DNA of 64,000 bases from an uncultured Bacteroidales bacterium (GCA_963818295.1 CAWFRW010000021.1:1794-65793); one strand, 5' to 3'. Positions 8,155-28,372 are shown, counted from the stretch's first letter. Notes: generated from the sequence alone by a model not told the origin. Made by a program: numbers and translations.

Positions 8155-9411
8155 GTGATTTTTAGTATGGATTATTTACGGTCATTACTTGCAACAGGAA
8201 TAATTTTTTTATCAATGACTCCTTCCGGAGCGCAAAAACCTTATGGATGGCTGGGGCCAGACCGGTCAGGCATTTATCAGGAAACAGGATTGCTGAAGGT
8301 ATGGCCAAAAGCCGGCCCTGCACTGCTATGGGAAACAACTGACATTGGCTCAGGCTACTCAAGCGTGACAGTTACAGAAGACGCAATCTATATAACCGGC
8401 AGACGGGGCGAAAATGATATCCTGACAGCTTTCACCCAGGATGGCAGAAAGAAGTGGGATGTGATCTATGGAAAAGCCTCCGACAGCAATTACCCCGACA
8501 GCAGGGGAACAGCGACAGTATCGGGAGGCAGGCTGTTTCTTGTAAGCGGCATGGGCGATCTTGTTTGTATCAGCAAGGATGGCAAGATAATCTGGTCGGT
8601 AAATTATTCAACAAAGTACAAGGGAGTAACACCTGATTTTGGAATATCTGAATGCCCGCTTGTTGTGGGAAACAAGGTTATTGCAACTCCCGGTGGAAAG
8701 ATAGCTGCAATGGCTGCCTTCAATACTGAAAATGGAAATCTTATCTGGGAGACTCCCTCCATCGGGGATGTAACACAATACGTAAATCCGGTTCTTATTG
8801 AGTCGGGAGGTAAAAAACTGATTGTGACTCTGTCAGCGAAATATGTCTTTGCAGTTGATGCAAATACGGGCAAATTGCAGTGGAAATTCGATTATATGGC
8901 CGAGTGCACGGCTCCCGAGTGGAGATTTGCCCATATAAACACACCTATCTTCCGTGATGGCTGTTTATTTATTTCAAGCGGATACGATAAGTATGCAATT
9001 AAGCTGAAATTGAATCCTGACGGCTCTTCACCCGTTGTTGTATGGAAGAATGAAGAACTGGATCCTCATGTAGGCGGGGCAATACTTCTTGGCGATTATG
9101 TATACGGTTCCAATTATGAGTCAAGTTCATACGGGAAATGGATGTGTGTAGACTGGAAGACAGGCAGAACTATGTGGAAAACAGATTGGTATACCAAAGG
9201 TTCGCTTATTGCAGCCGACGGGATGCTCTATTTTTATGAAGAGAAGAACGGACATGTCGGACTCGTCAGGCCGGGACCCGAAAAGCTTAATGTTGTGAGT
9301 GAATTCAAGATTGCAAAGGGGAATGGCCCCTACTGGGCGTATCCGGTGATTGATAAAGGAAGATTGTTTATCAGACATGGCAGTTATCTTGCCGTATTCT
9401 CAATAAAATAG
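8155..9411 (+). CDS. Secreted PQQ-like (BamB-like) beta-propeller repeat protein, paralog 1
   Basis: Intact ORF. The more likely start is the ATG at 8167 (MDYLRSLLATGIIFLSMTPSGAQ signal peptide). The N-terminal motif GWLGPDRSGIYQETGLLKVWPKAGPALLW closely parallels paralog 3. Repeated ...G.L.A.D..TGK..W blades are present. Confidence 0.8.
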   Translation: MIFSMDYLRSLLATGIIFLSMTPSGAQKPYGWLGPDRSGIYQETGLLKVWPKAGPALLWETTDIGSGYSSVTVTEDAIYITGRRGENDILTAFTQDGRKKWDVIYGKASDSNYPDSRGTATVSGGRLFLVSGMGDLVCISKDGKIIWSVNYSTKYKGVTPDFGISECPLVVGNKVIATPGGKIAAMAAFNTENGNLIWETPSIGDVTQYVNPVLIESGGKKLIVTLSAKYVFAVDANTGKLQWKFDYMAECTAPEWRFAHINTPIFRDGCLFISSGYDKYAIKLKLNPDGSSPVVVWKNEELDPHVGGAILLGDYVYGSNYESSSYGKWMCVDWKTGRTMWKTDWYTKGSLIAADGMLYFYEEKNGHVGLVRPGPEKLNVVSEFKIAKGNGPYWAYPVIDKGRLFIRHGSYLAVFSIK

Positions 9412-9501
9412 GTCTTCAATCCTGTTTATAAAGGAAACTATCTGCACCTTTGCAGCCATTTTCAGGATCGAAATTTTTATTGCAAAAATGAAATTTATTA
9501 A

Positions 9502-10942
9502 TTGGAAAAGAGAAAGATAATAATAATAAGTCTGTTTATTACAGGGTTTCTCAGCCTGCTTCTATGGTGGCTGGTTAGGGATCAGCCATTGATTGTATCG
9601 GAGAGAATTCCGGGAATGGATAATCGCCCCAAACAGGAACCACGTTCTGATTCAGTCATAATAGGACAATATTTTGACACCCTTGGTGCTTTTGATGAAT
9701 TGATGCCGGGCGATTGGCCAAGGTTCAGGGGAGCCGATTTTGATAATATAAACAAGGATATCACACCTCTTCGCGAAAAATGGGACACATCAGGACCAAA
9801 GATAATCTGGAGGACAACCGTTGGAGAAGGCTATGCAGGACCGGTTGTTCATAATGGCAGGGTCTATCTTCTGGACTATAATGAAAGAAAAAAAGCTGAT
9901 GTCCTCAGGTGTTTTTCCCTTGCCTCGGGCAAAGAGCTCTGGCGAAGATGGTATTACGTAGAGCTTAAGAGGAATCATGGTTATTCCAGGACAATTCCTG
10001 CAGTCACAGATAAATACATTGTTACTCTTGGTCCCAGATCACATGTAATGTGCCTTGATCCGATAACCGGCAATCTCCTGTGGAAAATTGACCTTGAACG
10101 TGAATATGGGATACCGGGAAAAGAGAAGGGCCGCATCACTCCTGATTTCTATTCCGGGCAATGCCCTCTGATCGATAACGAGGTTGCAGTGCTTGCTCCC
10201 GGAGGAAAGGCGCTTATGATAGGAGTGAGTTGCGCCACAGGAAAAGTCATCTGGAAGACTCCTAACAGAGACTCGCTGAGGATGTCACACGGCTCGGTCA
10301 TTCCAATGGTGCTGCACGGGAAGCGAATGTATGTTTATAATGCTGTCGGAGGTGTTTGCGGTGTCTCCGCTGAAGGAGATGACATTGGGAAACTGATGTG
10401 GCAGACAACGGAATGGAGCCCTGCGACAACGGCAGCCTCTCCCCTGTTCCTTGGCAATGATGAAATTGCCGTTTTTGGAAGTTACGGCGCGGGTGGCGCA
10501 AGATTAAAAATCAATTTCAGCGGATCTGAGTTTTCCGCCGTGCTTATGGAACAACATAAAGCCACAAACGGTATTGCAAGCGATCAGCAGACTCCTATTA
10601 TAACAGGTGATTTTATCTGGTGCCTGATGCCTGAGAATTCCGGTGCCGCTTAAAAAACAGCTCGTTTGTTACCACAGGTCAGATCTGCTCACCCCCGTTT
10701 GGTCAAGCGGAAAGGAAAACAGATTTGGACGGGGACTGGGACCATACATAATCAGCGGAGATAAGATGTATCTGCTTGATGATGATGCAAAACTATACCT
10801 TTTCAGGATCCAGGATAAGAGCATCACGCTGCTTGACAGTCATAAAATTATTAATGGCATCGAGGCCTGGGGGCCAATGGCAATTGCCGGACATTATCTC
10901 ATTATGAGGGATGCAAGAAATCTGTTATGCCTTGATATTTGA
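9502..10942 (+). pseudogene. PQQ-like beta-propeller protein, paralog 2, with N-terminal TM anchor; one frame break near 10640-10650
   Basis: ORFs 9502..10653 and 10643..10942 are colinear with a propeller (WPRFRGADFDN..., CLDPITGNLLWKI, ...LIMRDARNLLCLDI). TTG start with the hydrophobic N-terminus IIIISLFITGFLSLLLWWL. Confidence 0.75.
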
Positions 10943-10955
10943 AAAATTCAATTAT

Positions 10956-11876
10956 ATGAACAAAAAATTTGCGTCGGTTTTTTCAGTTTTGATAATTGTT
11001 GTTTTCATAGCTTATATCGTATACGATACTGCGCGGCCATCCGCAGATAATAAAGATCTGGTTGCCGTTCGACCACACGACAGCATCCCCGACAAATGGA
11101 AGATAACCGGTGAACTGCATGTGAGTGAAGGCTCACTTAAAGCGGTAACCGTTTCATCTTCAGGCAACATATATATAGGAGGTGAATCATTTGTATCGTG
11201 CTATACTGTTGATCTTAAACAAGTTTGGACTCTGAAAACGCCTTATCCTGTCACCTCACTCTCAAATTCAGGGGATACAATTTTTGCATCTACTGTAGAA
11301 ATGATACTAGTTATTGGCACTGATGGCAGGATGAAAGATGAATGGGGTCCGTTTGAAGACAAAAGTTACATTACCTCTGTTGCATCAAACCGGAACAGGG
11401 TCGCTTATGCAGATGCTGGCAACAAAATGGTTGTACTCCTCGACAAACAGGGAAGGGTGGAGAAAATTATAGGTCAGAATGACGGACAGTTCGTTTTGCC
11501 GAGTCCATACTTCGATGTTGCTCTTGATGCAACAGGAAATTTATATGTGGCAAATACGGGGCACAGACGAATCGAAACAAGGTCACCTGATGGAAGGCTG
11601 ATCAGTACTTTCGGCGAGCCGGGGATGGCCCCCGGTGCGTTCTGCGGATGCTGTAACCCAGCACACTTCATCCTGACTCCGAATGGATTTGTCACATCTG
11701 AAAAAGGAATAAACAGGATAAAGATCCTCGGAAAAGAGGGAGGATTTGTTGAGTTTGTATCCTCCGGAAAAAAATTCGTCCCCTCTGTTCCACTTGACCT
11801 GGCATCTGCAGACGGAAATATTATTTATGCTGCAAACCCTTATGATTCAAAACTTTATTCATTTGTAAGGAAATAA
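10956..11876 (+). CDS. NHL-repeat six-bladed beta-propeller protein with N-terminal TM/signal anchor and a CGCCNP motif
   Basis: ATG at 10956 (MNKKFASVFSVLIIVVFIAYIVY). NHL-like blades (LPSPYFDVALDATGNLYVANTGHRRIE..., GINRIKIL, IYAANPYDSKLYSF). Unusual Cys cluster GAFCGCCNPAHF. Confidence 0.7.
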   Translation: MNKKFASVFSVLIIVVFIAYIVYDTARPSADNKDLVAVRPHDSIPDKWKITGELHVSEGSLKAVTVSSSGNIYIGGESFVSCYTVDLKQVWTLKTPYPVTSLSNSGDTIFASTVEMILVIGTDGRMKDEWGPFEDKSYITSVASNRNRVAYADAGNKMVVLLDKQGRVEKIIGQNDGQFVLPSPYFDVALDATGNLYVANTGHRRIETRSPDGRLISTFGEPGMAPGAFCGCCNPAHFILTPNGFVTSEKGINRIKILGKEGGFVEFVSSGKKFVPSVPLDLASADGNIIYAANPYDSKLYSFVRK

Positions 11877-11937
11877 TGCAACTGATAAATTACATAATTA
11901 ATTAAATTTGGAACATTAGGAAAATTAAACCTTTAAC

Positions 11938-13162
11938 ATGATTCATATGACAAGAGTGATTTTTTTATCCCTGATTGTAATATTAAGTACCAGTGCAAGT
12001 GCGCAGGATGTTGCACAATGGCGTGGACCTGACAGGAATGGGATCTACACCGAAACCGGACTTCTGAAAAAATGGCCTGATGCAGGCCCAAAGCTGTTGT
12101 GGCATTTCGATGAACTTGGCGACGGGCACACTTCAGCTGCTGTGACCGGATCAGGAATTTATACTTCAGGAATGGTTAATGGAACATGGTTTTGTTTTTG
12201 CACTTGACCTCTCCGGAAAACTGCTCTGGAAAAAGGAATATGGAAAGGAATGGGCAGAAAACTGGAACGGTACAAGGTCAACCCCTCTGGTGGTAGGCGA
12301 CAAATTGTATGTTCTGAGCTCATACTGGAAGCTTGTTTGTATGAATACTTCAAATGGACAGATATTATGGTCAGCAGATCTGGAGAAAGATTACGGTGCA
12401 AAAAACAATGAATGGGGAATATCCGAGAATCTGTTATTCGACGGAAATGTTTTGTATTGCACACCGGGTGGTTCAGGTGCGAGCCTTGTGGCTCTTGACA
12501 GGAATTCCGGCAAACTTATATGGAAAAGTAAAGGAAATGGCAATAAATCAGCTTATTGCTCACCTCTGATGATAAAAATACAGAACCGGAAAATTATTGT
12601 CACTATGATGGAAAAGGCTGTCTGCGCGTTTGATGCTGAAACAGGCAAGGAACTTTGGGAGTATGAGCATATAAACGACACAGGTGTTCATCCGAATGTC
12701 CCTGTTTTCATAAAAGGAAATCTCTACTGCACCTCGGGTTACGGTAAAGGCGGAGAGATGCTCAGGCTGTCAGAAGACGGAACATCAGTCAAGGAGGTAT
12801 GGAAAACAAAGGATGGTGATTCCAGAACAGGTGGAATAGTTGTTCTGAATGGGAAAATTTATGTCTCGGGTGACAGAAACAAAAAGATCTTCTGTCTTGA
12901 CTGGGAAACCGGAAAAGTAATCTTTTCAACAAAAGAGATGGCTCCTGCAACACTGATCGCTGATGAAGGCTTGCTGTATCTTTACAGTGAATCAGGCAAG
13001 GTTTACCTGGTTGAGCCAAAAGCTGACGGTTTCAATATTCTAAGCTCATTTGCAGTTCCATTTGGAGCGAACCCTCACTGGGCGCATCTTGTGATTAAGA
13101 ATAAAAAACTATATGTAAGACACGGGACATCACTTATGGTTTACGATATTGCTGCAAATTAG
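11938..13162 (+). pseudogene. Secreted PQQ-like beta-propeller protein, paralog 3; one frame break near 12180-12200
   Basis: ORFs 11938..12207 (signal peptide, then QWRGPDRNGIYTETGLLKKWPDAGPKLLW) and 12179..13162 (FVFALDLSGKLLWKK...AFDAETGKELWEY...LYVRHGTSLMVYDI). Confidence 0.8.
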
Positions 13163-13232
13163 ATCCTTATCATGCAGCGGTCCGGAGGAATATTTTAAGA
13201 TGGCTTTAATTTCATTATAATTGGGGTGAGAT

Positions 13233-13397
13233 ATGACAAGAAATGATTTTGTTAGAAAAGTAATTCAGATTGGGCTTTTTGCCGCTCTCTCACTCGTTGT
13301 TTTTGCATTGAAAAACAGGATAATAACTGATGGGAATTGTTCATCATGCCCTGAGAATGGAAAATGTCCCGGAAAAAATTATTGCATCAAAAACTGA
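13233..13397 (+). CDS. Small (54 aa) single-TM protein with Cys-rich tail; hypothetical
   Basis: Not in the ORF track (under 60 aa). My translation is MTRNDFVRKVIQIGLFAALSLVVFALKNRIITDGNCSSCPENGKCPGKNYCIKN, with the stop at 13395-13397. A GGGGTGAG RBS-like purine run precedes it. It ends 11 nt before the ferredoxin gene. Confidence 0.4.
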   Translation: MTRNDFVRKVIQIGLFAALSLVVFALKNRIITDGNCSSCPENGKCPGKNYCIKN

Positions 13398-13408
13398 CAG
13401 GTTAAGCT

Positions 13409-13993
13409 ATGAGAGAGGAGAAGAATAAATATCAGACCAGACGCGATTTTGTAAAAAAGGCAGGCAGAATTGCTGCCGTATTGCCACTTGCAATTATTCC
13501 TGCTGCGCTCCTGAGAAAAACATCCCTCTCCGGATATGTATGGCAGATTGATCCGTTCAAATGTACTCAGTGCGGTCAGTGCAAGACCAACTGTGTTTTA
13601 ACACCCTCGGCTTCAAAATGTGTTCATGCATATCAGATGTGCGGCTTTTGCGATCTGTGCGGCGGATATCTGAGGCAGGGAGTCAAGACAATAAGTACGG
13701 GGGCGGAAAACCAACTCTGTCCCACCGGCGCAATTACAAGGAAATTTGTGGAGGAGCCGTATTTTGAATATACTATAAATGAGGATCTTTGTGACGGTTG
13801 TGCAAAATGTGTGAAAGGGTGCGGTGATTTTGGTAATGGCTCCCTCTATATGCAGATCAGGCATAACCTGTGTGTAAACTGCAATGATTGTTCAATTGCA
13901 AGAACATGTCCTTCAGATGCCGTCATAAGAGTTCCGGCTTTAACCCCTTATCTGCAGAAGGATAAAGGCAAGTCTGTGAAAAATGATTCTTAG
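13409..13993 (+). CDS. Tat-exported NapG-like ferredoxin with four [4Fe-4S] motifs
   Basis: Twin-arginine signal (TRRDFVKKAGRIAAVLPLA). Four Cys motifs: CTQCGQCKTNC, CGFCDLCGG...CP, CDGCAKCVKGC and CVNCNDCSIARTCP. Confidence 0.85.
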   Translation: MREEKNKYQTRRDFVKKAGRIAAVLPLAIIPAALLRKTSLSGYVWQIDPFKCTQCGQCKTNCVLTPSASKCVHAYQMCGFCDLCGGYLRQGVKTISTGAENQLCPTGAITRKFVEEPYFEYTINEDLCDGCAKCVKGCGDFGNGSLYMQIRHNLCVNCNDCSIARTCPSDAVIRVPALTPYLQKDKGKSVKNDS

Positions 13994-14031
13994 GGTTTTG
14001 TTAAATTAAGTTGAGAGGATAAGATTTAAGG

Positions 14032-15309
14032 ATGAAAAAAGCTCTTCCATATATTATATTCATATTGCTGATCGGCTGGCATGCAGTATTGTATGCGCAG
14101 GACAGGTTCCCAAGACCCGAATTTGAATCGGGTTATGTGTATGCCACGAACCAGATGCCTGCTCAGAGAAGCCAGGTCTGGGAGTATTTTGATGTGGCAG
14201 TACTGATAGTGGCGCTGTCAATTACAACATGGCTGGCGCTTAAAAAACGCTCGAGACAGGGTCTCATATGGATGTCTCTCTTTTCCCTCGCCTATTTCGG
14301 ATTCTACAGACAGGGTTGCATCTGTTCCGTCGGATCCGTTCAAAATGTTTCACTTGCCTTATTTAATGAGATTTACACAATACCTCTTACTGCTCTGCTA
14401 TTCTTCATAATTCCTCTTCTCTTCGCACTGGCTTACGGAAGGGTATTTTGCGCCGGTGTTTGTCCGCTTGGCGCTATTCAGGAACTATCAGGCATAAAAC
14501 CGCTCAGGCTTAATAAAAGCATTGAGATCATTCTTGCCTCGGTACCGTTTATATATCTTGCCCTTGCAGTCTTGTTTGCTGCTACAAACAGTCAGTTTTT
14601 AATTTGCAGGTATGATCCGTTTGTTGGCATATTCAGGCTGGATGCACCATACACAATGATTGTTTTCGGTGCGCTCCTGCTTCTGTCAGGAATATTCCTG
14701 AACAGACCCTATTGCAGGTTTCTTTGTCCGTACGGAGCGCTTCTGAACATTTTTTCAAGGTTTGCCGGTAAACACCTCACGATAACACCTGCTGAATGCA
14801 CAAACTGCAGACTTTGTGAGGAAGCATGCCCTTATAATGCTATACTGCCTTCCGATCCTGAGCCTCACAGGGATCTTCCTGACAAATCAAGGAAACAGTT
14901 TCTCCTCTATTTTCTTTTTATCCCGCTTTTTGCAATTTTCGGAGCTTTCATTGTGTATAACCTTGCTCCCGCTCTCTCGGGTGTTAACAGCAATGTGAGC
15001 CTGGCGAGGGAGATCAGGCTTGAAAAGAAAACAGGTAAAGAATCTCTTTCCAAGGCAGTTGTGGCATTCAAGGAATCCGGAAAGACAGAAGTTGAGCTCT
15101 TTGACGAAGAAAATATGATAATTGGAAAATTCCAGAAGGGTGCACCCTGGGCAGGAATTTTTCTTGGAGCATCCTTCGGCATTGGAATGGTTTCATTCAC
15201 AATGAAACGAAGAAGAACTGAATATAAACCACATCAGGGCAAATGCTACAGCTGTGGCAGATGTTTCAGATATTGTCCGATAAAAGTACCCAGCCAGAAT
15301 GAAATTTAA
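14032..15309 (+). CDS. NapH/MauN/NosR-C-like integral-membrane polyferredoxin
   Basis: Multiple TM helices carry the family CxxxCP motifs (RVFCAGVCPLGA, RPYCRFLCPYGA). There are two soluble 4Fe-4S motifs (CTNCRLCEEACP, CYSCGRCFRYCP). Confidence 0.8.
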   Translation: MKKALPYIIFILLIGWHAVLYAQDRFPRPEFESGYVYATNQMPAQRSQVWEYFDVAVLIVALSITTWLALKKRSRQGLIWMSLFSLAYFGFYRQGCICSVGSVQNVSLALFNEIYTIPLTALLFFIIPLLFALAYGRVFCAGVCPLGAIQELSGIKPLRLNKSIEIILASVPFIYLALAVLFAATNSQFLICRYDPFVGIFRLDAPYTMIVFGALLLLSGIFLNRPYCRFLCPYGALLNIFSRFAGKHLTITPAECTNCRLCEEACPYNAILPSDPEPHRDLPDKSRKQFLLYFLFIPLFAIFGAFIVYNLAPALSGVNSNVSLAREIRLEKKTGKESLSKAVVAFKESGKTEVELFDEENMIIGKFQKGAPWAGIFLGASFGIGMVSFTMKRRRTEYKPHQGKCYSCGRCFRYCPIKVPSQNEI

Positions 15310-16994
15310 CATTAAAGATAAAGACATCAGTATACTAAAAGTTATCAGCCAGGTTGCGGGTGGCTTTACGCTTATTGTTGCACTGACGATGATTTTAAGC
15401 CTTATACAGCTAAAAACGATCAAACCGCTTGACAGCCCTGCCCTGCTGTCAATCAAGGAGCAATATGACAAAGATCCTTCCAATGCAGCTCTGGCAGCCC
15501 AGGTCAGGGCGATGGACCTGATGGCTAGGAAAGCCTATTTTTCATCCCGGTGGCAGGTTGAAACCGGTTCATATCTTTTATTGGCCGGCGCTGTGATCTT
15601 TATCCTTAGTCAGCGGCTGATCTCTGAAAATGAAAAGGTGAAACCTGTTCTGCCAGGCCCTAAAACTGAAACCAATGCACAATCTGAAAAAATAAAAAAA
15701 TATCTTCTTGTTACAGCTACAGTGATTTCGGTAGCAGCTATCGGCGCATCCTTTATTCTAAGGTCAGAACTGCCTGATCCTTCAAAGAAAACAGGCATGG
15801 CTCAGGGTTCCGGGAAGAAGGGCAATGGCTCTGCTCCCAAACCTGACAAGACCAATTATCCCTTTTTCAGGGGGCAGGATAGCCGTGGTATTGCAGGAGG
15901 TTCGGGATATCCTACAGAATGGGATGGCGCCTCAGGAAAGAATATTGGATGGAAAATCCAGCTTCCTGGCACAGGCAAAAGCTCTCCCGTAATATGGGAT
16001 GACAAGATCTTCGTGACAGGTGCGGAAGGTAATCAGTGTGAAATTTACTGTATTGACAAAAAAACAGGTTCTGTACTTTGGACAGGGTCTGCTGTCAATA
16101 TTCCGGGTGAACCGGGTGAACAGCCAAAGATGGACAGAGAGGCCGGACTTGCTGTATCTACTGCTGCCACAAACGGAGAAGTAGTATGTGCCATTTTTGC
16201 AAATGGCAATCTTGTCTGTTTCGACCTTGACGGGAAGCAGAAATGGGCTAAAAATATCGGGGCTCCGGAAAGCAGTTACGGATATTCATCGTCGCTTCTG
16301 ATCTATGACAATATTCTTCTGGTGCAATATGACAGCAACACAAAAATATCACTTATAGGATTTGACCTTGGAACAGGTGAACAGAAATGGGAAACTATCC
16401 GTCAGGGCAGAACAGTATGGTCTTCCCCTGTTCTGGCATATTTTGACGGAACACCTCAGGTTGTTTTGAACGGAAATCCTGCTGTCAGCAGCTTTGATGC
16501 TGTCACTGGCAAACAGCTGTGGTCAGTGGAATGCATGAGCGGGGATGTTGCCCCCTCAGTGGCTGTTAACGCTAAAATGGCATTCGCAGTTACCGACTAT
16601 GCAAAGCTGACTGCGATAAAGCCTGGCACAGGCGCTTCGGTAGCATGGGAGGATAATACATTCACCCCCGATGTTTCCAGCCCGGTTGCCACGGATGAAT
16701 ATCTGTTCCTGTCTACAGGCAATGGTGATGTAGCCTGTTACAACGCAGAGAAGGGCGATACGCTCTGGACACATTATTTTCAGGACCAGTTCTATGCCTC
16801 ACCGATTGTGGCTGATGAAAATGGTATATCTTCTTGACAGAAGCGGCGTCATGCATATAGTCGAAGCAGGCTCTGGATTTAAGCTGATATCAGAAGCGGC
16901 CCTCGGGGAAACGGCAGATTGTACGCCGGCTTTTTCGGACAAGAAAATTTATATCAGAGGAAGTAAAAATCTTTATTGCATTTCAAAAAATTGA
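15299..16994 (+). pseudogene. Membrane-anchored PQQ-like beta-propeller protein, paralog 4 (about 170-aa 3-TM N-domain plus propeller); one frame break near 16815-16835
   Basis: The start overlaps the NapH-like stop by 11 nt. TM segments are VAGGFTLIVALTMILSLI, SYLLLAGAVIFILS and LLVTATVISVAAIGASFIL. The propeller begins YPFFRGQDSRGIA...WKIQLPGTGKSSPVIWDDKIFVTG (compare paralog 6). Removing one A from the A4 run at 16818-16821 joins ORFs 15299..16837 and 16794..16994 as ADEMVYLLDRSG. Confidence 0.75.
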
Positions 16995-19406: not shown

Positions 19407-20475
19407 GTTAGACAATAAGGATTTTGAGGTCAGGGAAGGATCGACCATCCTTGATGCTGCCAGGGAGGCAGGATTTACAATACCCACTCTTTGTCATAAT
19501 GATGGATTGCCTCATTACACCTCATGCATGGTCTGCATGGTAAGGGACAACAGTACAAAAGGCTTTTTTGCCTCATGTTCAGTAAATGTTCAGGACGGAA
19601 TGGATATAGATGTTTCCTCTGATGAGGTCATATCTCTCAGACGAAAATCGACTTGAACTTCTGCTTTCGGAACATCGTGCTGAATGCGAGGCTCCATGCA
19701 GGATTGTTTGTCCTGCCGGATACAATATCCCTCTTTTCAACAGATATCTGGCCGCTAAGGATCTTGAAAATGCAATAAAACTGACGCAGTCAGAAATTGA
19801 TACAGACAACATTGCCTGCGATAAATGTGCCGGATACTGCGAAAATGCCTGCCGAAGAAAAAAAATTGATATTCCTGTTTCGATCAGGAATATGAAATTG
19901 TTCATATTCAGCAACTTATATCACAGGTGATATTGATCTTGAGCAGGTTGAAAATAACAATGCAGAAAAAACCGATCAGGAAAAGCCTGAAATCATCAAA
20001 AAGATTCAATTCACTAATCGGAAAAATGGAACCTGAAGAACAGGCTGAATGGCTTAAAGAGTGCATTGGGAATACAGAACGATTCAGAGAGATATCTGTT
20101 CCTGAAAATGCATATCTTGAAGCAGGAAGCTGCATGCATTGTGACTGCCGGGCAGCAGATGACTGCAGGTTAAGGGACCTGGCTGAAGAATTTTCAATAA
20201 AAAATCCGAGAGGTAAACTTGTAAATGCTCCGATTGTTAAAAAGATAAATTACAAGACCGGACTTGTTTTTGAAAATGCAAAGTGCATAAAATGCGGACT
20301 CTGTGTAAGATTATGTGAAGATTCGAAAGAAGAACCAGCACTGTGCTTTATTAACAGGGGATTTGTCAGCATTATTTCAGAACCTCTCACTGAAGAATTT
20401 GACAATATACTGAAAACAAAAAGCAAAGAAGTCATTGAGATTTGTCCGACAGGTGCATTGAGTCAGCTTAAGTAA
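19393..20475 (+). pseudogene. Iron-sulfur protein: NuoG/HydA-N-terminal-like 2Fe-2S domain, GltD-type helical ferredoxin segment and C-terminal Cys clusters; 2 frame breaks; no catalytic domain
   Basis: The start overlaps the NuoF-like stop by 14 nt. Contains MARIKLDNKDFEVREGSTILDAAREAGFTIPTLCH...SCMVCMV (2Fe-2S), ECEAPCRIVCPAGYNIPLFNRYLAAKDLENAI, CMHCDCRAADDCRLRD and CIKCGLCVRLCE...CPTGAL. I saw no H-cluster (TSCCP / MPC..K) or molybdopterin motifs. Confidence 0.7.
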
Positions 20476-21646: not shown

Positions 21647-22942
21647 ATGAAGATTGTTTATCTGATTACAGGTTCAGGTGGGTCATTTTATTGCGGAAAT
21701 TGTTACCGCGATATGATCTACCTGAGAGCAATAAGAAATGTTCCGGGAATAAGCGCATCAGCAATACCTTTATACCTGCCGCCGGATGAAACAAATGAAG
21801 AAAGTGGCCTTGACAGGAATGTATTCTTCGGTGCCATATCGATGTACCTGAGGGAAAAAGTGCCTTTTCTGAGAAATATGCCTGCATTCTTCGACAAATT
21901 TCTTGACTCTGCACCAATGCTGAGGATGGCAGCAAAAAGGTCAGGCACAACAAACACTGAAGGTCTTGAGGATATGACGCTCAGTATGATAAAAGGAGAA
22001 AAAGCATTTCCCGAACAGGAACTCAGAAGGCTTGTCAGATATCTGACCGAAAACGGAAAACCTGATGTAATTCACCTTTCAAATGCACTTATAATCGGAC
22101 TTGCACGTCAGCTTAAAAGGTATATGGATGTGAAAATAGTCTGCTCACTACTGAATGAAGACGACTGGATTGATGAAATGGCTGAACCGTACAGGTCAGA
22201 TGCATGGAGACTCATAGCGGAAGAGGCGGGAAATGTTGACGCGTTCATTACTCCAAGCGCATATTACAGAGATTTGTTCAAATCAAAAACCGGCTATTCA
22301 GGAAAGAATGTCTATATAATCCCACTGGCTCTTGATTCAAGAAATCTCAATATCCTTCCTAAGAAAAACAACTTTCCAGCAGTTGGTTATTTCAGCAGAA
22401 TAAACTCCCAGAATGGTTTTGACAAACTTGTTGATGCATTTATTGAGCTCAGGAAAGGAAACAGATTGCCAAACCTTACTCTTCACGTTTCCGGGGGATT
22501 TACAGGCAGCGACAAATCCTTTATTGCAGAGCAGATCAGGAAGATAAAATACAATGGACTCAAAAGCTTTGTAAAAATCTATCCTGAATTTCAGGGAAAC
22601 AGCAAAGAGGAATTTTTTAGTGCCATTGATATAATGAGTGTACCGGTGAGGAAACTCGATGGATACGGCCTTTATATACTCGAAGCAAATGCCTCGGGGG
22701 TTCCTGTTGTTCAACCCGAGACCGGTGCATTTCCTGAAATCCTTGAAAGAACACAGGGTGGAATAACCTATTCACCCGATACAGCGGAGGGTCTGGCATC
22801 AGCCCTCGAAAAGTTGTTTGAAGACAACAGCCAGCGGATAAGACTCGGAAAGAAAGGAAGTGAAAATGTACTGAAGGAACTGTCACTTGATAAAATGTCG
22901 GGTGGTCTGGAAGTAGTATATAATGCAACAATGCGTAAATAA
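21647..22942 (+). CDS. GT4-family (GT-B) glycosyltransferase with N-terminal CxxC
   Basis: Intact 431-aa ORF. The C-terminal half has the GT4 signature (YILEANASGVPVVQPETGAFPEIL). The N-terminus is MKIVYLITGSGGSFYCGNCYRD. Confidence 0.8.
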   Translation: MKIVYLITGSGGSFYCGNCYRDMIYLRAIRNVPGISASAIPLYLPPDETNEESGLDRNVFFGAISMYLREKVPFLRNMPAFFDKFLDSAPMLRMAAKRSGTTNTEGLEDMTLSMIKGEKAFPEQELRRLVRYLTENGKPDVIHLSNALIIGLARQLKRYMDVKIVCSLLNEDDWIDEMAEPYRSDAWRLIAEEAGNVDAFITPSAYYRDLFKSKTGYSGKNVYIIPLALDSRNLNILPKKNNFPAVGYFSRINSQNGFDKLVDAFIELRKGNRLPNLTLHVSGGFTGSDKSFIAEQIRKIKYNGLKSFVKIYPEFQGNSKEEFFSAIDIMSVPVRKLDGYGLYILEANASGVPVVQPETGAFPEILERTQGGITYSPDTAEGLASALEKLFEDNSQRIRLGKKGSENVLKELSLDKMSGGLEVVYNATMRK

Positions 22943-22954
22943 TCATACTCAGGG

Positions 22955-23620
22955 ATGATGCTTACATTAAAAAATATATCAAAATCCTTTGTTCAGAGAG
23001 GAATTGTACTGGAGAATCTGTCTCTCGATGCAAAAGAGGGAGATACGATAGCAATAATGGGGCCTTCCGGATCCGGAAAGACAACACTGATGAATATAAT
23101 CGGGCTTCTTGAAAAACCAGATAATGGCTCTATATTCTTCCGCGACAAGGATGTGAGGAATTATACAGATGATGAATCTGCTGATTACAGAAACCGGAAT
23201 ATAGGCTTTGTATTTCAGGAACACCTCCTTCTGCCGCATCTGACTATCCGTGAAAATATCCTTCTCCCGATTCTTGCTGCAAAGCACACAAAAGCAGAAG
23301 CGGCATTAAAAGTTGAACGGGCTATGGCATTAATGGAGGAAACAGGTATTTCAGATCTGTCCGCCAAATATCCGGGGACAATTTCAGGCGGCGAAGCACA
23401 GCGTGCAGCGCTTGTCAGGGCGCTTGTAAACAATCCGTCAGTTCTGCTTGCCGATGAACCCACAGGATCTCTTGACAGCAGAAACGCAGAAATCCTGGGC
23501 AACCTTCTTTCAGAGATGAACCGCCAATATGGCCTCACGCTTATACTTGCGACTCATTCTGAAAAACTTGCTTCAAAAATGGCGCGGATACTTATCCTTG
23601 GCGATGGAAAATTAACCTGA
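22955..23620 (+). CDS. ABC transporter ATP-binding protein (LolD/MacB-type)
   Basis: Walker A GPSGSGKTT, signature ISGGEAQR, Walker B LLADEPTGSLD. Intact, 221 aa. Confidence 0.9.
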   Translation: MMLTLKNISKSFVQRGIVLENLSLDAKEGDTIAIMGPSGSGKTTLMNIIGLLEKPDNGSIFFRDKDVRNYTDDESADYRNRNIGFVFQEHLLLPHLTIRENILLPILAAKHTKAEAALKVERAMALMEETGISDLSAKYPGTISGGEAQRAALVRALVNNPSVLLADEPTGSLDSRNAEILGNLLSEMNRQYGLTLILATHSEKLASKMARILILGDGKLT

Positions 23621-23643
23621 AAAGCTGAACCAGAAAATTATAT

Positions 23644-26600
23644 ATGCTACCCGGGATCCTGAAGATAGTTATAAAGTCTGTTCGGTTTTATAAGAAACCG
23701 GTTGTATACCAGATTCTTATTGTTGCCCTTCTGTCGGCTGTAATTACGGGCTCACTTCTTACAGGATCCTCAGTCAGGAGCAGTCTGAGAAAATCTGCTT
23801 CTGAACATCTTGGAAATACCGGGATCCTGATCAGCTCAGGCAATCGTTTCTTTGCTCAGTCACTTGTTCCAAGGCTGGAAGATGATACAAGGCTGAATTG
23901 CACAGGACTTCTTGAAATACGTGGGTTTTGTCAGAATCTCGTTACCCAGGAAGAGCTTAGTAATATTCATATTTATGCTGTCACAAACGATTTTTTCAGG
24001 TTTCAGGGAGCAGATACCTTAAATATCAATCCGGGCGAGGCGGCTGTCAATGAGAAGATTGCATCTTCCCTTGGACTGAAAACCGGCGATGAACTCATCC
24101 TGCGTTTTAATGAGATAAGCGAAATTCCGGGCGATGCTCCGTTTGCTCCTGCAAAAGAAGAAGGCAGATCAGTAGTAATGAAGGTAGGTGCTATCCTGAA
24201 TGCCAATGAGTCAGGTAATTTCTCTCTTGCAATAAACCAGGCTGTTCCGGAAAATATATTTGTGAATATCTCAGATATTGCTGAAAATAAGGAGAAAACC
24301 TATAAGTTTAACAGATTACTGATTGAAAATAAGGATAACGTAAGTGCAACCGGGGTATACGATATCCTTTTAAAGCTCCTGAAACCTTCAGATATTGGAA
24401 TCAGTTTAATTCATACAGCTAAAACAGGAGGTATTGAACTAAGGTCAGAAAGGATATTTATTGAAAGCTCGCTTATAAATGAGATCCGGAAATGTATTCC
24501 ATCTGCCGCTCCCGTAATAACCTATCTTGGCAACAGGCTGTCGCATGGTTCATTATCTGCACCCTACTCATTTATTTCAGGGTTGCCACGCTCATTGTAT
24601 AAGGAAATTCCGGACGGGGATGGTATAATAATCAATCAATGGCTTGCTGAAGACCTGTCTGCCGGACCGGGAGATACTATTGCAATTTCATGGTATGCTC
24701 CTGATTCGCTTAACAGGCTTATTGAGAAAAACAATAATTTTTGTGTTGAACGAATAGTTGAAATGTCCGGAATATGGGGCGATTCGCTTTTGATGCCGGC
24801 ATTTCCTGGAATATCTGGCAGTGAGTCATGCTCTGACTGGGATGCAGGTGTTCCTGTCAGGCTAAATGAAATCCGCAGGAAGGATGAAGCATACTGGAAT
24901 CGATACAGGGGAACCCCAAAGGCATTCATAAATTATGATAAGGGGCTTGAGCTTTGGGGCAATAATTTTGGCCCTGCAACCGCACTTCGTTTTGCTGAAA
25001 ACATCACTGAGACAGAGGTTTACGAAAAGCTTTCCGGTCATCTTGATCCGGTAGAGAACGGTTTCGTTATCACGAATCTGTACGAAGAGTCACTCAAGGC
25101 TGCAAGTGAGAGCGTTGATTTCAGCACTCTCTTTCTGAGCCTCGGATTCTTTCTTATTCTGGCATCGTTTGTATTGCTATCATTCGCAGTCTCCACGTAC
25201 CTGGAGTCAAAGTACAACCAGATACGAACTTTTTTTGCCCTTGGTTTCAGAACCCTTTTTATAGAGAAATTATATCTGGCTGAGTCGGGTTTGATCTCCT
25301 TCACCGGTTGTCTTATAGGCTCAGTTGCCGGTTATCTTGTAAGTTCATTGATTATCAGATTATTAAATACTGTCTGGCAGGGAGCGGTGCAGACTGATAC
25401 ATTAAGCGCATATTTCAGCCTGACATCTGTTCTTACAGGCTTTCTTATCACTGTCATTATAGTCTTTATTTTTATTGCTGTAAAAATCAGAAAATATCTC
25501 AGAACTCTTAACAGGGAGAAAAAACTGGAGCACTCAGCTCCATCACGCATTCTGAATCTTATATTTCTTGCTTCATTGCTACTTATGACACTTGTGCTGT
25601 TTGTCCTGTCTTTTCTGCTGAAAGACCAGGAGATCATGCTGTGCTTTGCCTCCGGTTCAATGTTGCTTGTCTTCATGATAGTTTTATGGCGACAATACCT
25701 TATCAGCCCGTCAGGTATCGCGCCCGGGAAAAACAATTCAACCGGGAGATTATCCGGACTATACTTCGCATATTATCCGGCACATGCTCTGACACCTGTA
25801 TTATTCATTGCTGCGGGCATTTTTGCCGTTTTTATCACAGGGGCGAACAGGATGAGTTTTGACAGCAGTCACCTTAAGCCTTCCGGAGGTACGGGCGGTT
25901 TCTCGCTCTGGTGCGAGACTACGATACCTGTAAGATCAGATCTGACAACCGTTTCTGGAAAGGCAACTGCAGGTCTTGATGATGAACAGTTATCCGGGAT
26001 ACAAATTATTCAGCTTAAGAGGTTTGCAGGAGATGATGCCAGCTGCCTTAATCTGAATCATGTGACAATGCCACCACTGCTGGGTGCCGATGCCGGACAA
26101 TTCATTTCCAGGGGATCGTTTTCTTTCGCAAAAGCCATTAAAATGCCCGGGACCGAAAATCCATGGCAGATGTTGAGTTTGCCCCCTGCTAAGAATACGA
26201 TTTATGGAGTTGCTGACCAGACTGTTCTGGACTGGGGACTGAAGATAAAACCCGGAGATACCCTTATTATGAGGTCGGAGAGCGGACAGAAGCTTAATAT
26301 AATTATAGCTGCAGGATTAAAATCCTCCATCTTCCAGGGTTATGTCATTATAGGCATGGATAATTTCAGAAAGTACTTTCCATCAGTTGCAGGAAGTTCA
26401 GTCATGCTTATCGATGGCAATAAGCAATTTACAGACCTGTATGCCGGAACATTGAATGAACGTCTTGCAAGCTATGGTCTGAAAGTGGAAAGGACTAATG
26501 ACAGGCTTGCATCCTTTTATCAGGTAACAAATACGTATCTGTCGGTGTTCGGCGTTTTTGGCGCGTTGGGCATGATTACGGGTATTGCAGGTCTTGGCTT

Positions 26601-26910
26601 TGTGCTGTTGAGGAACTATAACTTACGCAAGCGGGAGTTCGCACTGATGATGGCTACAGGATTTAAAATCAGAAAAATAAGAAGCCTGATATTTTCCGAA
26701 CAGATGCTTATTCTGTGTGCGGGAGTTATCTCAGGTGTTTTGCCTGCCGCCCTGGCTACTTATCCCTCCCTGAAAAATAGTCCGGATGTTCCATGGATCT
26801 TCCTGTTATCAACAATAGTTTTGATCTTTCTCACCGGGACAATTGTCCTGATGCTTTCAGTTTCCTCAGTAACAGGTAATTCGCTTACCACAAGCCTGAG
26901 AAAGGAGTAG
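23644..26910 (+). CDS. Very large (1088 aa) FtsX-like ABC permease with two permease modules and large extracytoplasmic domains
   Basis: Uninterrupted 3.27 kb ORF. N-terminal TM followed by a long soluble domain, a mid-protein TM cluster (about residues 490-760) and a C-terminal FtsX-type 3-4 TM bundle (...LRNYNLRKREFALMMATGF...). Confidence 0.85.
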   Translation: MLPGILKIVIKSVRFYKKPVVYQILIVALLSAVITGSLLTGSSVRSSLRKSASEHLGNTGILISSGNRFFAQSLVPRLEDDTRLNCTGLLEIRGFCQNLVTQEELSNIHIYAVTNDFFRFQGADTLNINPGEAAVNEKIASSLGLKTGDELILRFNEISEIPGDAPFAPAKEEGRSVVMKVGAILNANESGNFSLAINQAVPENIFVNISDIAENKEKTYKFNRLLIENKDNVSATGVYDILLKLLKPSDIGISLIHTAKTGGIELRSERIFIESSLINEIRKCIPSAAPVITYLGNRLSHGSLSAPYSFISGLPRSLYKEIPDGDGIIINQWLAEDLSAGPGDTIAISWYAPDSLNRLIEKNNNFCVERIVEMSGIWGDSLLMPAFPGISGSESCSDWDAGVPVRLNEIRRKDEAYWNRYRGTPKAFINYDKGLELWGNNFGPATALRFAENITETEVYEKLSGHLDPVENGFVITNLYEESLKAASESVDFSTLFLSLGFFLILASFVLLSFAVSTYLESKYNQIRTFFALGFRTLFIEKLYLAESGLISFTGCLIGSVAGYLVSSLIIRLLNTVWQGAVQTDTLSAYFSLTSVLTGFLITVIIVFIFIAVKIRKYLRTLNREKKLEHSAPSRILNLIFLASLLLMTLVLFVLSFLLKDQEIMLCFASGSMLLVFMIVLWRQYLISPSGIAPGKNNSTGRLSGLYFAYYPAHALTPVLFIAAGIFAVFITGANRMSFDSSHLKPSGGTGGFSLWCETTIPVRSDLTTVSGKATAGLDDEQLSGIQIIQLKRFAGDDASCLNLNHVTMPPLLGADAGQFISRGSFSFAKAIKMPGTENPWQMLSLPPAKNTIYGVADQTVLDWGLKIKPGDTLIMRSESGQKLNIIIAAGLKSSIFQGYVIIGMDNFRKYFPSVAGSSVMLIDGNKQFTDLYAGTLNERLASYGLKVERTNDRLASFYQVTNTYLSVFGVFGALGMITGIAGLGFVLLRNYNLRKREFALMMATGFKIRKIRSLIFSEQMLILCAGVISGVLPAALATYPSLKNSPDVPWIFLLSTIVLIFLTGTIVLMLSVSSVTGNSLTTSLRKE

Positions 26911-27013
26911 CGGGGAGCGTAAAGAGTTAAGCTCCGCCTGGGGGTACGGAGGTGAAGAAGTTTAAAGTTCGGGGTTCAAGGTTCTTCCCGGAAATCCGCA
27001 ATCACTTCTACTC

Positions 27014-28372
27014 CTATTTCTTCCCTGCAGCAATAAGGTATTTCTGTGTTCTGAAATAAATCAAGCCTTCAGTGATTGCCGGAGCTGACATACATATATC
27101 GTTCAGCGGAATTTCGGCAAGCAGATTAAAACTGTCACCGTCCTTTATTATATAAACAGTCCCCTCTTCATCTGCTATATATATCCTGCCATCAGATGCT
27201 ACCGGAGAAGCAATAAAGCTTTTTGATTTGCCAAGCTTGGACTTGTATATCTCATTTCCGTTTGATGGATCAAGGCATACGACAAGGCCGTTCCAGTTTA
27301 CATTATATAAGCGGTTCCTGTAAAGGAGAAGTGTATGCATATAGGAACCTCCCCGGGGCAGACTCCATTTTACATATTCATTTGACGTGCTGTCCTTTGG
27401 CAGTGTGATATCTCCTGAAGCAGATGTTCTTATTGCAAGTATCGGAGAACTTTGGCCATGAGCGCTGTTCAGATAGATCATATCCCCGTCAACAATCGGT
27501 GTCGGGATCTGAATGTCTCCCCCGCCCGACATTCTCCATACCTCCTCCCCTGTCCTGAAATCATATCCTCCCCGGTTCCTGAAACCATTTACAACAACAA
27601 ATGTTTTGCCTTTATTTGTGTATATATTCGGCGTACACCAGCCCGGGTATTCATCCCTGCTTGTTTTCCATAGCTCTTTCCCTGTCTTTTCATCATAAGC
27701 TGCAAGAAATGAATTTTCCATAACGTCGCACTGGATAATCACAACTCCGTCATGAATTATAGGAGAACTTGCAAATTCCCATTCTGCACTTTTCTCAATA
27801 AAAAAAACGGATTGAAGCACTCCGAAATTTTTCTGCCACTGAAGCTTGCCGTTCATGTCATAGCAATACAAACCTTCGGAACCAAAAAATGCGACAACAT
27901 ATTTCCCGTCTGTGGCCACAGTTGTATTAGCATGAGTCGATTTGGGATGCCGTTTCATCGCAGGTATGCCTTTGCAGCTGGTCTCTTCCCATAATGATTT
28001 TCCGGAGTTTTTATCGAAACAGAGAACTTTCCATTCGTGTTCAGAGGAATCATCAACAGGTTCAATGTCGCCGTAGATCCCTGGCTTGAATCCCTTCTTA
28101 TCTGCTTTGCTGACAGCCGTAGTAATAAACAGCTTGTTATCCCAGATAACTGGACTTGACAAACCAAGACCGGGTATTTCGATCTTCCATCTTATATTTC
28201 GCATTGTTTGAAGATCAAAGGATTCAGGCAGACCGGCATTATCAAGTACTCCGGATGAAAGATATCCGCGGTAGGAAGGCCATTGCCTTGACGCCATTGT
28301 CTGCCCGGCAGCTGTCATGTATTGCATTCCTGCTAATAATATGATTAACAGCAATATGCGTATTATTTTCAT
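27014..28372 (-). CDS. Secreted PQQ-like beta-propeller protein, paralog 6 (convergent with the cluster)
   Basis: Intact 452 aa with a signal peptide. QWPSYRGYLSSG...IRWKIEIPGLGLSSPVIWDNKLFITT closely parallels paralog 4. Repeated ...D..TGKELW blades. Confidence 0.8.
   Translation of the reverse strand: MKIIRILLLIILLAGMQYMTAAGQTMASRQWPSYRGYLSSGVLDNAGLPESFDLQTMRNIRWKIEIPGLGLSSPVIWDNKLFITTAVSKADKKGFKPGIYGDIEPVDDSSEHEWKVLCFDKNSGKSLWEETSCKGIPAMKRHPKSTHANTTVATDGKYVVAFFGSEGLYCYDMNGKLQWQKNFGVLQSVFFIEKSAEWEFASSPIIHDGVVIIQCDVMENSFLAAYDEKTGKELWKTSRDEYPGWCTPNIYTNKGKTFVVVNGFRNRGGYDFRTGEEVWRMSGGGDIQIPTPIVDGDMIYLNSAHGQSSPILAIRTSASGDITLPKDSTSNEYVKWSLPRGGSYMHTLLLYRNRLYNVNWNGLVVCLDPSNGNEIYKSKLGKSKSFIASPVASDGRIYIADEEGTVYIIKDGDSFNLLAEIPLNDICMSAPAITEGLIYFRTQKYLIAAGKK

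Follow-up and report, generated by a model that had tools for sequence, protein, structure and literature searches.

A conserved Bacteroidales gene cluster combining a Bfu-type module, NapGH-like iron-sulfur proteins and beta-propellers: a putative heme-free route for electrons to the periplasm

Here we describe a gene cluster of uncultured Bacteroidales in which known kinds of module are assembled into a system without a described counterpart. It lies in a 64,000-nt stretch of DNA from an uncultured Bacteroidales bacterium (GCA_963818295.1 CAWFRW010000021.1:1794-65793), called the window below, in whose full length all coordinates are given. Genes were called from a listing of open reading frames (ORFs) and their translation, domains were assigned with Pfam, and genes were counted by orthology to intact loci. 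The cluster consists of a dense plus-strand array at 8155-26910 and a propeller gene that faces it, and it encodes six beta-propellers with Pfam PQQ_2 matches (P1 to P6), an NHL propeller, a NapG-like ferredoxin, a NapH-like membrane polyferredoxin, a putative cytoplasmic module of the Bfu family, a short peptide with four cysteines, a family 4 glycosyltransferase (GT4) and an ATP-binding cassette (ABC) ATPase with an FtsX permease (Table 1). An earlier note on this DNA had described fifteen plus-strand genes: the span and the tight packing are as it said, while orthology reduces the count to 14, plus the one convergent propeller gene, which ORF listing and translation bear out. All of the gene junctions that it quoted are correct (10942/10956, 13397/13409, 15299/15309, 16976/16994, 19393/19406, 22942/22955 and 23620/23644), and Pfam agrees with its domain assignments, the match of the NHL protein being weak in Pfam and clear against NHL domains in the PDB (E 1e-20). 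It had, however, treated the genes as intact, reading silently through frameshifts that six of them carry.

The cluster is conspicuous for what its proteins lack. The heme c motif CxxCH is absent from every one of them, and Pfam finds no molybdopterin, copper or hydrogenase domain among them, so that the earlier description of a set of genes without cytochrome, molybdopterin, copper or hydrogenase parts stands. No NCBIfam model reached its cut-off for any component of the cluster. Rfam detected neither a riboswitch nor any other RNA across the whole window, and a promoter and terminator scan of the window stayed at chance level, although that scan does not cover Bacteroidota promoters.

Table 1. 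Genes of the cluster, with window coordinates and approximate positions of single-base frame changes.
Gene	Position	Strand	Product	Frame changes near
P1	8155..9411	+	secreted PQQ_2/BamB-like eight-bladed propeller, 418 aa; Pfam PQQ_2 E 2e-28	
P2	9502..10942	+	N-terminally membrane-anchored PQQ_2 propeller, ~480 aa; core component	10645
NHL	10956..11876	+	six-bladed NHL propeller, membrane-anchored, 306 aa	
P3	11938..13162	+	secreted PQQ_2 propeller, P1 paralogue; variable accessory	12185
Cys4 peptide	13233..13397	+	54 aa, single-pass membrane, C-x2-C-x5-C-x5-C	
NapG-like ferredoxin	13409..13993	+	Tat (twin-arginine translocation) signal T-R-R-D-F-V-K, 17 Cys; Pfam Fer4 families	
NapH-like polyferredoxin (hub)	14032..15309	+	two CX3CP and two [4Fe-4S] motifs; Pfam Fer4_5 E 1e-15, Fer4	
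P4	15299..16994	+	three N-terminal transmembrane (TM) helices and periplasmic PQQ_2 propeller, ~565 aa	16818
NuoEF	16976..19406	+	putative BfuC-BfuB (NuoE-NuoF type) fusion, ~808 aa; NADH/flavin mononucleotide (FMN) site and six Fe-S sites	18055, 18366, 18621
FeS	19393..20475	+	BfuA-like Fe-S protein, ~360 aa; 2Fe-2S, GltD-type clusters, Nqo3-type cluster; Pfam Fer2_4, Fer4_20, Fer4_Nqo3	19650, 19906-19978 (two sites)
P5	20503..21613	+	secreted propeller, very regular PQQ repeats, ~370 aa	21281
GT4 glycosyltransferase	21647..22942	+	assigned by Pfam	
ABC ATPase	22955..23620	+	LolD / MacB / FtsE type; Pfam ABC_tran	
FtsX permease	23644..26910	+	duplicated, 1088 aa, 10 TM helices; two FtsX domains	
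P6	27014..28372	-	convergent secreted PQQ_2 propeller, paralogue of P4 propeller domain	

Evidence that these genes belong together comes first from their conservation as a set. With the NapH-like protein as query, a scan of a genome collection returned 536 relatives in species-representative genomes, and we compared the best 80 of these 536 loci, all from different species-level genomes and labelled nearly throughout as Bacteroidales, Bacteroidota or Rikenellaceae metagenome-assembled genomes (MAGs), by tblastn and ORF-level assignment. Across the 80 loci the order P2, NHL, Cys4 peptide, NapG-like, NapH-like, P4, NuoEF, FeS, P5, GT4, ABC, FtsX is nearly invariant, and contig ends explain most of the absences of single genes. 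P1 and P3, which occur in zero to three copies across related loci, and the Cys4 peptide, which is found in about 70 of the 80 with all four cysteines invariant, are variable accessories. P6 holds the equivalent convergent position, with 70-74% identity, in two (L062 and L078) out of three loci that extend into this region. Components can be lost one by one, since NHL is missing from L062 and both P1 and P2 from L079, two loci that also lack the Bfu module. Judged by their record titles, many of the loci come from fen, peat, lake-sediment and digester samples. Relatives of the NapH-like protein abound in public metagenomes as well, with more than 7,700 at E<=1e-5 among the scored candidates, the best 120 of them all at least 78% identical; an exact look-up of the window protein found no identical record.

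The association extends to distant lineages, where it becomes physical. An exhaustive search among representatives at 50% identity found 392 proteins related to the NapH-like one (E<=1e-30), and we checked the best 150 of them for fusions. Ten of these 150 are NapH::P4 fusions of 973-1136 aa (a double colon marks a fusion) that contain the whole of P4 together with the TM domain (E 1e-69 to 1e-112); the separate NapH-like and P4 proteins of the window align collinearly to one of them, P0145, with 42% and 33% identity. One of the fusions is labelled Planctomycetota by NCBI. The contigs that bear them have a GC content of 58-71%, and on them the same genes are arranged differently. On a JGI contig the order (a 410-aa protein, GT4, ABC, FtsX, PQQ_2, NHL, NapG, NapH::P4, NuoEF, FeS) is a circular permutation of that in Bacteroidales. 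Elsewhere we found PQQ_2 and NHL divergent from NapG, NapH::P4, NuoEF and FeS (L081/L082); PQQ_2, a 340-aa NHL-like protein, NapG, NapH::P4, NuoEF and FeS (L084); FtsX, PQQ_2, NHL, a 79-aa Cys4 peptide analogous to that of the window, NapG, NapH::P4, NuoEF, FeS and PQQ_2 (L085); and NapG, NapH::P4, NuoEF, FeS, ABC, FtsX and a P5-like protein (L088). Two contigs have no NuoEF, one with ABC, FtsX, PQQ_2, NHL, NapG and NapH::P4 (L086) and the other with a P5-like protein ahead of the same six (L087). Both of these have about 71% GC; a protein with GDSL-lipase, TPR and FGE-sulfatase domains lies just downstream in L087, and TPR/HEAT-like and LRR proteins lie downstream in L086. The Cys4 peptide is absent from several of the distant loci. 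Pairwise comparison identifies the distant genes as specific orthologues of those in the window, with 53% identity for NuoEF.

A second kind of fusion joins the NapH-like protein to the cytoplasmic side. In a Phycisphaerae MAG (GCA_028706835.1; L083:1759-8176) a NapG-like gene is followed by a NapH-like::NuoE fusion, NuoF and a protein with Fer2_4, Fer4_20 and Pyr_redox_2 domains, a set that looks like a membrane-anchored Bfu complex of the Stn/Nfn type; no propeller gene was identified among its neighbours, two of which, directly adjacent, have no Pfam match. Synteny kept in permuted form across lineages, together with two kinds of fusion that involve the same protein, shows the genes to be one functional unit centred on the NapH-like hub, and the Fe-S chain and the propellers very probably form one physical complex. 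The gene-neighbourhood comparison suggested in the earlier note thus came out in favour of a module, and the loss of synteny in related genomes that it had named as a possible outcome was not seen in the 80 species or in the distant lineages.

The cytoplasmic end of the chain is best understood through solved structures. In Pfam, NuoEF matches 2Fe-2S_thioredx (E 5e-49), corresponding to the C1 cluster of the NuoE-like BfuC, and, for the NADH/FMN domain with its B1 [4Fe-4S] cluster, Complex1_51K (E 8e-30 and 4e-10) and NADH_4Fe-4S (E 5e-32); its C-terminal Fer4_21 and Fer4 matches correspond to two [4Fe-4S] clusters (B3/B4), and residues 198-276, which would hold an N-terminal [2Fe-2S] cluster (B5), align to the N-terminal domain of chain B in 8oh5 and 9bov and of NfnB. 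Among solved structures it comes closest to NfnB (9n5u, E 2e-198), to chain B of 8oh5, which we take to be the StnABC transhydrogenase, and of 9bov, to NiFe-HydB (7t2r) and to HydB (7q4v/8a6t/7p5h); the top matches span E 1e-160 to 2e-198, with NuoF of Complex I far behind. When the orthologue from the intact locus L001 is compared with chain B of 7t2r, the B2 ligands C438, H525, C531 and C536 are conserved and C476 is a serine, and the fragment in the window also reads DCMVD and EMHTKGICPAKKC. This histidine is conserved in bifurcating BfuB and missing in non-bifurcating homologues, and the position of C476 is a threonine in about two-thirds of BfuB sequences (PMC9304861). By every sequence feature tested, NuoEF is therefore assigned to the electron-bifurcating Bfu family, as a BfuC-BfuB fusion resembling HydC-HydB and Stn. 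If NuoEF is such a bifurcating core, ferredoxin is by analogy probably a co-substrate together with NADH.

The FeS protein completes this picture. In the PDB it matches only the cluster-bearing N-terminal part (residues 1-180) of chain A in 9n5u (NfnA) and 9bov and of chain C in 8oh5, and it has in addition an Nqo3-type ferredoxin domain, for which reason we assign it as a probable BfuA without a catalytic domain. In Bfu enzymes BfuA relays electrons between the core and a third substrate (PMC9304861); here the membrane hub would be the sole candidate for that substrate. High-GC orthologues of the BfuA-like protein contain an extra Rossmann insert of about 175 aa (NAD_binding_8 / Pyr_redox_2, of the type that binds flavin adenine dinucleotide or NAD(P); L081:15502-17127, L084:15427-17010, L085:15436-17004 and L088:10833-12377), and the Bacteroidales form misses exactly that insert, between residues ~182 and 202. 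A short form (345 aa) is also found on the distant JGI contig. The Bfu module as a whole is optional, because NuoEF and FeS are absent from three Bacteroidales loci that keep the rest (L062, L078 and L079); they are likewise absent from L086 and L087 at high GC.

At the centre of the cluster, the NapH-like protein carries the motifs CAGVCP, CRFLCP, CTNCRLCEEAC and CYSCGRCFRYC, at the same positions as in the L001 orthologue, and has two extra TM helices between its two [4Fe-4S] motifs. It falls far short of the curated models for its relatives: 64.1 bits against a cut-off of 213 and 53.6 against 234 for the NapH/MauN models TIGR02163 and NF007013, and 51.6 against 1000 for NosR/NirI, where the match is confined to the C-terminal half of the NosR model. 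Some sources nonetheless attach an automatic NosR/NirI label to it. Neither the cluster nor any of the related loci that we examined contains nap (nitrate reductase) or mau genes. We considered whether the locus might be accessory to nos or nap and rejected this, there being no NosZ, no NapA and no copper or molybdopterin domain. The NapG-like ferredoxin is 48-64% identical to its orthologues in distant lineages; its RR-x-F-V and cysteine motifs are conserved, and its 17 cysteines are enough for four [4Fe-4S] clusters. In the characterised pair, the clusters of NapH lie on the cytoplasmic side and NapG is exported by the Tat system to the periplasm (PMC5449189), and from its signal we infer the same location for the NapG-like protein here. 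The resulting topology is self-consistent, because the fusion partners fit an arrangement with the hub clusters inside and NapG outside: the C-terminus of the hub is followed in one kind of fusion by NuoE, which is cytoplasmic, and in the other by three TM helices that lead to a propeller.

The propellers share a W/F-P-x-F-R-G start in all six PQQ_2 proteins, and the paralogies proposed for them in the earlier note hold, at 37% identity for P1 and P3 (E 7e-91) and 26% for P4 and P6 (E 6e-49). They range from 370 to 565 aa, anchors included. Against the PQQ-dependent alcohol/methanol dehydrogenase model TIGR03075, a catalytic propeller of 530 positions, they score 18-65 bits with a cut-off of 480, and against the BamB equivalog TIGR03300 they score 20-148 bits with a cut-off of 285. 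Their signal peptides are not followed by a lipobox cysteine, and P2 and P4 have TM anchors instead. True pyrroloquinoline quinone (PQQ) dehydrogenases are thus ruled out by scores and sizes, in agreement with the earlier view that the propellers are no quinoprotein dehydrogenases, and BamB orthologues by scores and the missing lipobox. By curated thresholds, the cluster proteins belong to none of the NapH, NosR, PQQ-dehydrogenase and BamB families.

P2 is the best conserved of the propellers, with 35-40% identity over the full length to orthologues in high-GC lineages and with the cross-lineage invariants K-x-x-H-G-x-x-R-T-x-P, G-Q-C-P, M-x-H-x-S and Q-x-T-P. A search with its sequence against the PDB gave no match. 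An AlphaFold2 model of a close orthologue (predicted local distance difference test (pLDDT) 77, predicted template modelling score (pTM) 0.78) superposes on BamB with E 2e-17 and template modelling scores of 0.52-0.54 by query and ~0.7 by target, and its next distinct match is an Acidithiobacillus tetrathionate hydrolase (E 3e-15, score ~0.54); the model points to an eight-bladed BamB-like propeller. Its invariant histidine, arginine, cysteine, methionine and glutamine motifs are candidate active sites, two of them on loops modelled at low confidence. P5 is 30-32% identical to its distant orthologues, which adjoin the ABC and FtsX genes in L087 and L088. The NHL protein carries a vicinal cysteine pair in the motif F-C-G-C-C-N-P (window ~11640-11660). 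In the Bacteroidales we counted FCGCCNP 58 times, FCGCCAP 9 times and FSGCCAP once; distant lineages have FCGCCNP or FAGCCGP, so that G-C-C-x-P is invariant across lineages. The FAGCCGP form, in which the first cysteine is gone and the vicinal pair kept, is that of L086 and L087. Among the features that we can recognise, the pair is the most plausible candidate for a redox-active site. AlphaFold2 run on the NHL protein without an alignment reached a pLDDT of 39.

The ABC ATPase is closest to LolD (212 bits against an equivalog cut-off of 308) and 41% identical to its orthologues in L086 and L087. Its partner permease, with periplasmic domains of 457 and 237 aa, is only weakly similar to the structures of YtrF and YbbP (E 0.01-0.03), and its orthologues, 26-31% identical over the full length, in some cases carry MacB_PCD; these matches point to a pair of the MacB/YbbP type. 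The GT4 has a strongly conserved N-terminus, M-K-x-x-Y-L-x-T-G-S-G-G-S-F-Y-C-x-N-C-Y-R-D, at the place where GT4 enzymes usually have a glycine-rich loop, and its gene adjoins ABC and FtsX on the fusion-bearing JGI contig too.

An important aspect of this locus is the quality of its sequence. Compared with the intact orthologues in L001, six genes are interrupted by about nine frame changes, all of them single-base indels (Table 1). We consider these to be probably errors of the assembly consensus and not gene decay, because the fragments retain 74-93% amino-acid identity to the L001 proteins without in-frame decay, the orthologues are intact in most related loci, and both the whole window and other MFD-labelled loci (L018, L022 and L031) are fragmented in the same way. 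Genes are split or truncated throughout 1-64000, those of housekeeping type included (for example 2979-4129, 36693-37711, 41317-42581, 45624-46289, 52138-53295 and 59213-59848): a sulfatase is spread over two ORFs, RhaA matches 257 of the 417 positions of its profile, the rhamnosidase, MFS, MatE and Cys/Met-PLP proteins are present as fragments, and the longest ORF within 28.5-64 kb has 384 aa. Such fragmentation favours pervasive indel errors over decay specific to this locus, and pseudogenisation is disfavoured, if not disproved, by the same observations.

Taken together, we propose that the cluster encodes an outward electron conduit, in which NADH and ferredoxin, or quinol, would feed the NapH-like hub, the NapG-like ferredoxin and finally a platform of propellers and NHL protein assisted by the MacB-type transporter; we give this reading as a whole a probability of roughly 55%. 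In this proposal, the BfuC-BfuB protein with its FMN and six Fe-S sites would take electrons from NADH, and probably from reduced ferredoxin as well, on the cytoplasmic side, and the BfuA-like protein would pass them to the cytoplasmic [4Fe-4S] clusters of the hub; in variants without the Bfu module the hub may draw on quinol, like canonical NapH. The hub would then reduce the Tat-exported NapG-like ferredoxin in the periplasm, which in turn would serve a membrane-tethered platform of cofactor-poor propellers made up of P4, attached to the hub, P2, P5 and the NHL protein. The site reduced on this platform would most plausibly be the Cys-Cys pair of the NHL protein or the invariant loops of P2, and the MacB/YbbP-type ABC-FtsX pair, with GT4 in some lineages, may present or remove the same substrate, periplasmic or embedded in the membrane. 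On balance, the cell would get rid of reducing equivalents, or make use of them, outside the cytoplasm and need neither heme nor molybdopterin nor copper for this.

A more specific version is tentative, and we think it rather doubtful in its full form: a new membrane-bound Bfu class would confurcate NADH and reduced ferredoxin and send the electrons outward along a heme-free NapH/NapG wire to a propeller-borne periplasmic reductase, which would use the vicinal cysteine chemistry of the NHL protein and act with the MacB-type transporter on an insoluble or membrane-embedded acceptor such as elemental sulfur/polysulfide or humic quinones. These acceptors, whether sulfur compounds, disulfides or quinone-like humics, are guesses prompted by weak hints, namely the likeness to the tetrathionate hydrolase fold, the cysteine pair, the habitats to which record titles point and the presence of a partner of the MacB type.

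Several observations weigh against the outward conduit. No propeller contains a recognisable redox cofactor site, and P4 looks like a scaffold because it has few residues that are invariant across lineages. The input from NADH and ferredoxin is not essential to the core, since some variants are without the Bfu module. The topology of the Cys4 peptide leaves the membrane side of its motif ambiguous, and to our knowledge electron passage across the membrane is not established for any member of the NapH-type family. Function in the source organism itself, moreover, rests on the assumption that the frame changes in the six genes are errors.

Other explanations start from the same parts. The Bfu module and the hub might constitute a respiratory entry point, an NADH/ferredoxin:menaquinone oxidoreductase, with the NapG-like protein and the propellers acting as a separate quinol-oxidising branch or as assembly and stability factors; its chief task would then be to supply the quinone pool and not to reduce a substrate in the periplasm. 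In its canonical form NapGH works as a quinol dehydrogenase (PMC5449189), some Bfu enzymes are predicted to use quinone as their third substrate (PMC9304861), the retention of NapGH in variants without the Bfu module implies another electron source, for example quinol, and the Phycisphaerae locus L083 combines NapG, NapH::NuoE, NuoF and BfuA with no propeller identified nearby. We nevertheless hold this to be unlikely, as every locus of the propeller type has conserved the propellers, the NHL protein and ABC-FtsX alongside NapGH, the fusion of P4 to NapH is hard to explain for bystanders, and no quinone-binding site is demonstrable. Emphasis can instead be placed on the envelope, with the MacB-type ABC-FtsX, the GT4 and BamB-like scaffolds forming a machine for transport or biogenesis (e.g., extraction or modification of lipids or glycolipids) that the Fe-S proteins merely sense or gate by redox. 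This would suit the BamB-like fold of P2, the scaffold-like P4, a YbbP/MacB-like permease with very large periplasmic domains and a GT4 whose conservation spans Bacteroidales and one distant locus; it appears distinctly improbable to us, given that cysteine motifs for about 20 Fe-S clusters and a complete Bfu core are a heavy investment for a sensor and that several high-GC loci have the redox core and the propellers without an adjacent ABC-FtsX or GT4.

The direction of flow is a further point of doubt, as an Fe-S wire has no intrinsic direction and Bfu enzymes are reversible, some of them running in the bifurcating sense (PMC9304861). A low-potential periplasmic donor could then be oxidised on the propeller/NHL platform, its electrons passing through NapG and NapH to a Bfu core that bifurcates them to NAD+ and ferredoxin. 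We rate the chances of this as slim: bifurcation to ferredoxin requires a donor near -400 mV, no candidate cofactor of a periplasmic oxidase was found, and variants without the Bfu module would be left with quinone as the only obvious acceptor. That the cluster does nothing at all, being an accidental adjacency or a decaying pseudogene array in this genome, is suggested by its frameshifts alone and is highly improbable. Accidental adjacency is refuted by synteny in 80 species and in distant lineages and by the fusions, and decay has to contend with fragments that have kept their identity in a window that is broken up throughout, housekeeping-type genes included.

How does the proposed conduit compare with known systems? 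The literature search found no description of this gene combination and no characterised locus that matches it, in keeping with the earlier statement that no characterised system has this composition. Clade II nos clusters comprise NosGH (or NosR), NosZ and NosDFY-NosL, and offer a parallel in that a NapGH-like electron supply, a beta-propeller enzyme of the periplasm and an ABC transporter are encoded in one cluster; the window propellers, however, have neither a cupredoxin domain nor a His-rich CuZ-type site, the ABC transporter is of the FtsX/MacB type and not NosFY, and the hub scores far below the NosR model, as mentioned before. In methylamine dehydrogenase clusters, NapG- and NapH-like genes (MauM/MauN) have as neighbours the genes for a beta-propeller subunit and for a small subunit rich in cysteine, whereas the present cluster has no MauG-type heme protein and no homologue of the light subunit with its tryptophan tryptophylquinone, and its propellers are PQQ_2/BamB-like. 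With YbbAP/MacB type VII ABC systems the cluster shares a LolD/MacB-like ATPase, a duplicated FtsX permease of 10 TM helices whose periplasmic domains are large, and orthologues with MacB_PCD; it departs from them in the weakness of the similarity, in the size of the permease with its 457-aa first periplasmic domain and in its setting inside a redox cluster. The P2 model shares with BamB and tetrathionate hydrolase a cofactor-less PQQ-like eight-bladed fold at about 14% identity, the window propellers differing from BamB in not being lipoproteins and in scoring below its cut-offs, and the likeness to tetrathionate hydrolase being limited to the fold of P2 and the repeats of P5.

Two more relatives are those of the Fe-S chain itself. 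NapGH of E. coli and Wolinella succinogenes likewise pairs a membrane protein of the Fer4_5 type, which has two CX3CP motifs and holds [4Fe-4S] clusters on the cytoplasmic side, with a Tat-exported four-cluster ferredoxin that serves a periplasmic partner (PMC5449189). The hub differs in its scores far below the NapH cut-offs, its two extra TM helices and the lack of nap genes, and in its partners, which are propellers, a Bfu module and an ABC transporter, with fusions to a propeller or NuoE in other lineages; in its manner of working, the system may nonetheless resemble NapGH and NosGH, as a periplasm-directed Fe-S wire. The Bfu family (HydABC, NfnABC/StnABC and NiFe-HydABCSL) has in common with the cluster the BfuBC core with FMN, C1, B1-B5 and the B2 histidine, as well as the N-terminal clusters of BfuA. 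Here, by contrast, BfuC is fused to BfuB, BfuA lacks H-cluster and pterin domains and, in Bacteroidales, a flavin domain as well, and the apparent third substrate, a membrane polyferredoxin leading toward the periplasm, is not among the types described for the family (PMC9304861). The survey of Bfu enzymes, which leaves 17 clades unassigned, contains neither the word NapH nor polyferredoxin (PMC9304861).

Other genes surround the cluster. An asparagine synthase gene, asnB (6093-7757, minus strand), lies divergent from P1 and is 97% identical to its L001 orthologue; it is adjacent to the cluster in about half of the Bacteroidales loci and not in the distant ones, and is probably inherited neighbourhood outside the system. 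A functional link to AsnB or to a flanking sulfatase was rejected, as these genes accompany the cluster in close relatives alone and not in the distant loci. Just downstream of P6, at 28376-29734 on the minus strand, are DUF2490 fragments and a DUF4956 protein; tblastn found no match to the latter in any of the 80 related loci, most of which end before this region. Further on, a rhamnose-utilisation region (39984-46289) with an FGGY sugar kinase, L-rhamnose isomerase and alpha-L-rhamnosidase fragments suggests, together with flanking sulfatases, a polysaccharide-degrading Bacteroidales organism. A lamin-tail-domain protein at 34144-34926 has a Por_Secre_tail, the C-terminal sorting domain of type IX secretion, which is consistent with an origin in Bacteroidota.

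Our proposal also has implications that extend beyond this locus. If its more specific version is true, the cluster would be an unnoticed electron sink of fermentative metabolism, widespread among the Bacteroidales that live in peat, sediments and digesters and present in Planctomycetota too, and if electrons from NADH and ferredoxin do reach the periplasm, this would be a route of fermenters that is missing from models of carbon flow in these habitats. It would further give the Bfu family a new type of output and NapGH-type modules a new set of partners. Finally, the natural NapH::propeller and NapH::NuoE fusions offer defined structural targets for heme-free transmembrane electron transfer by proteins of the NapH/NosR type.

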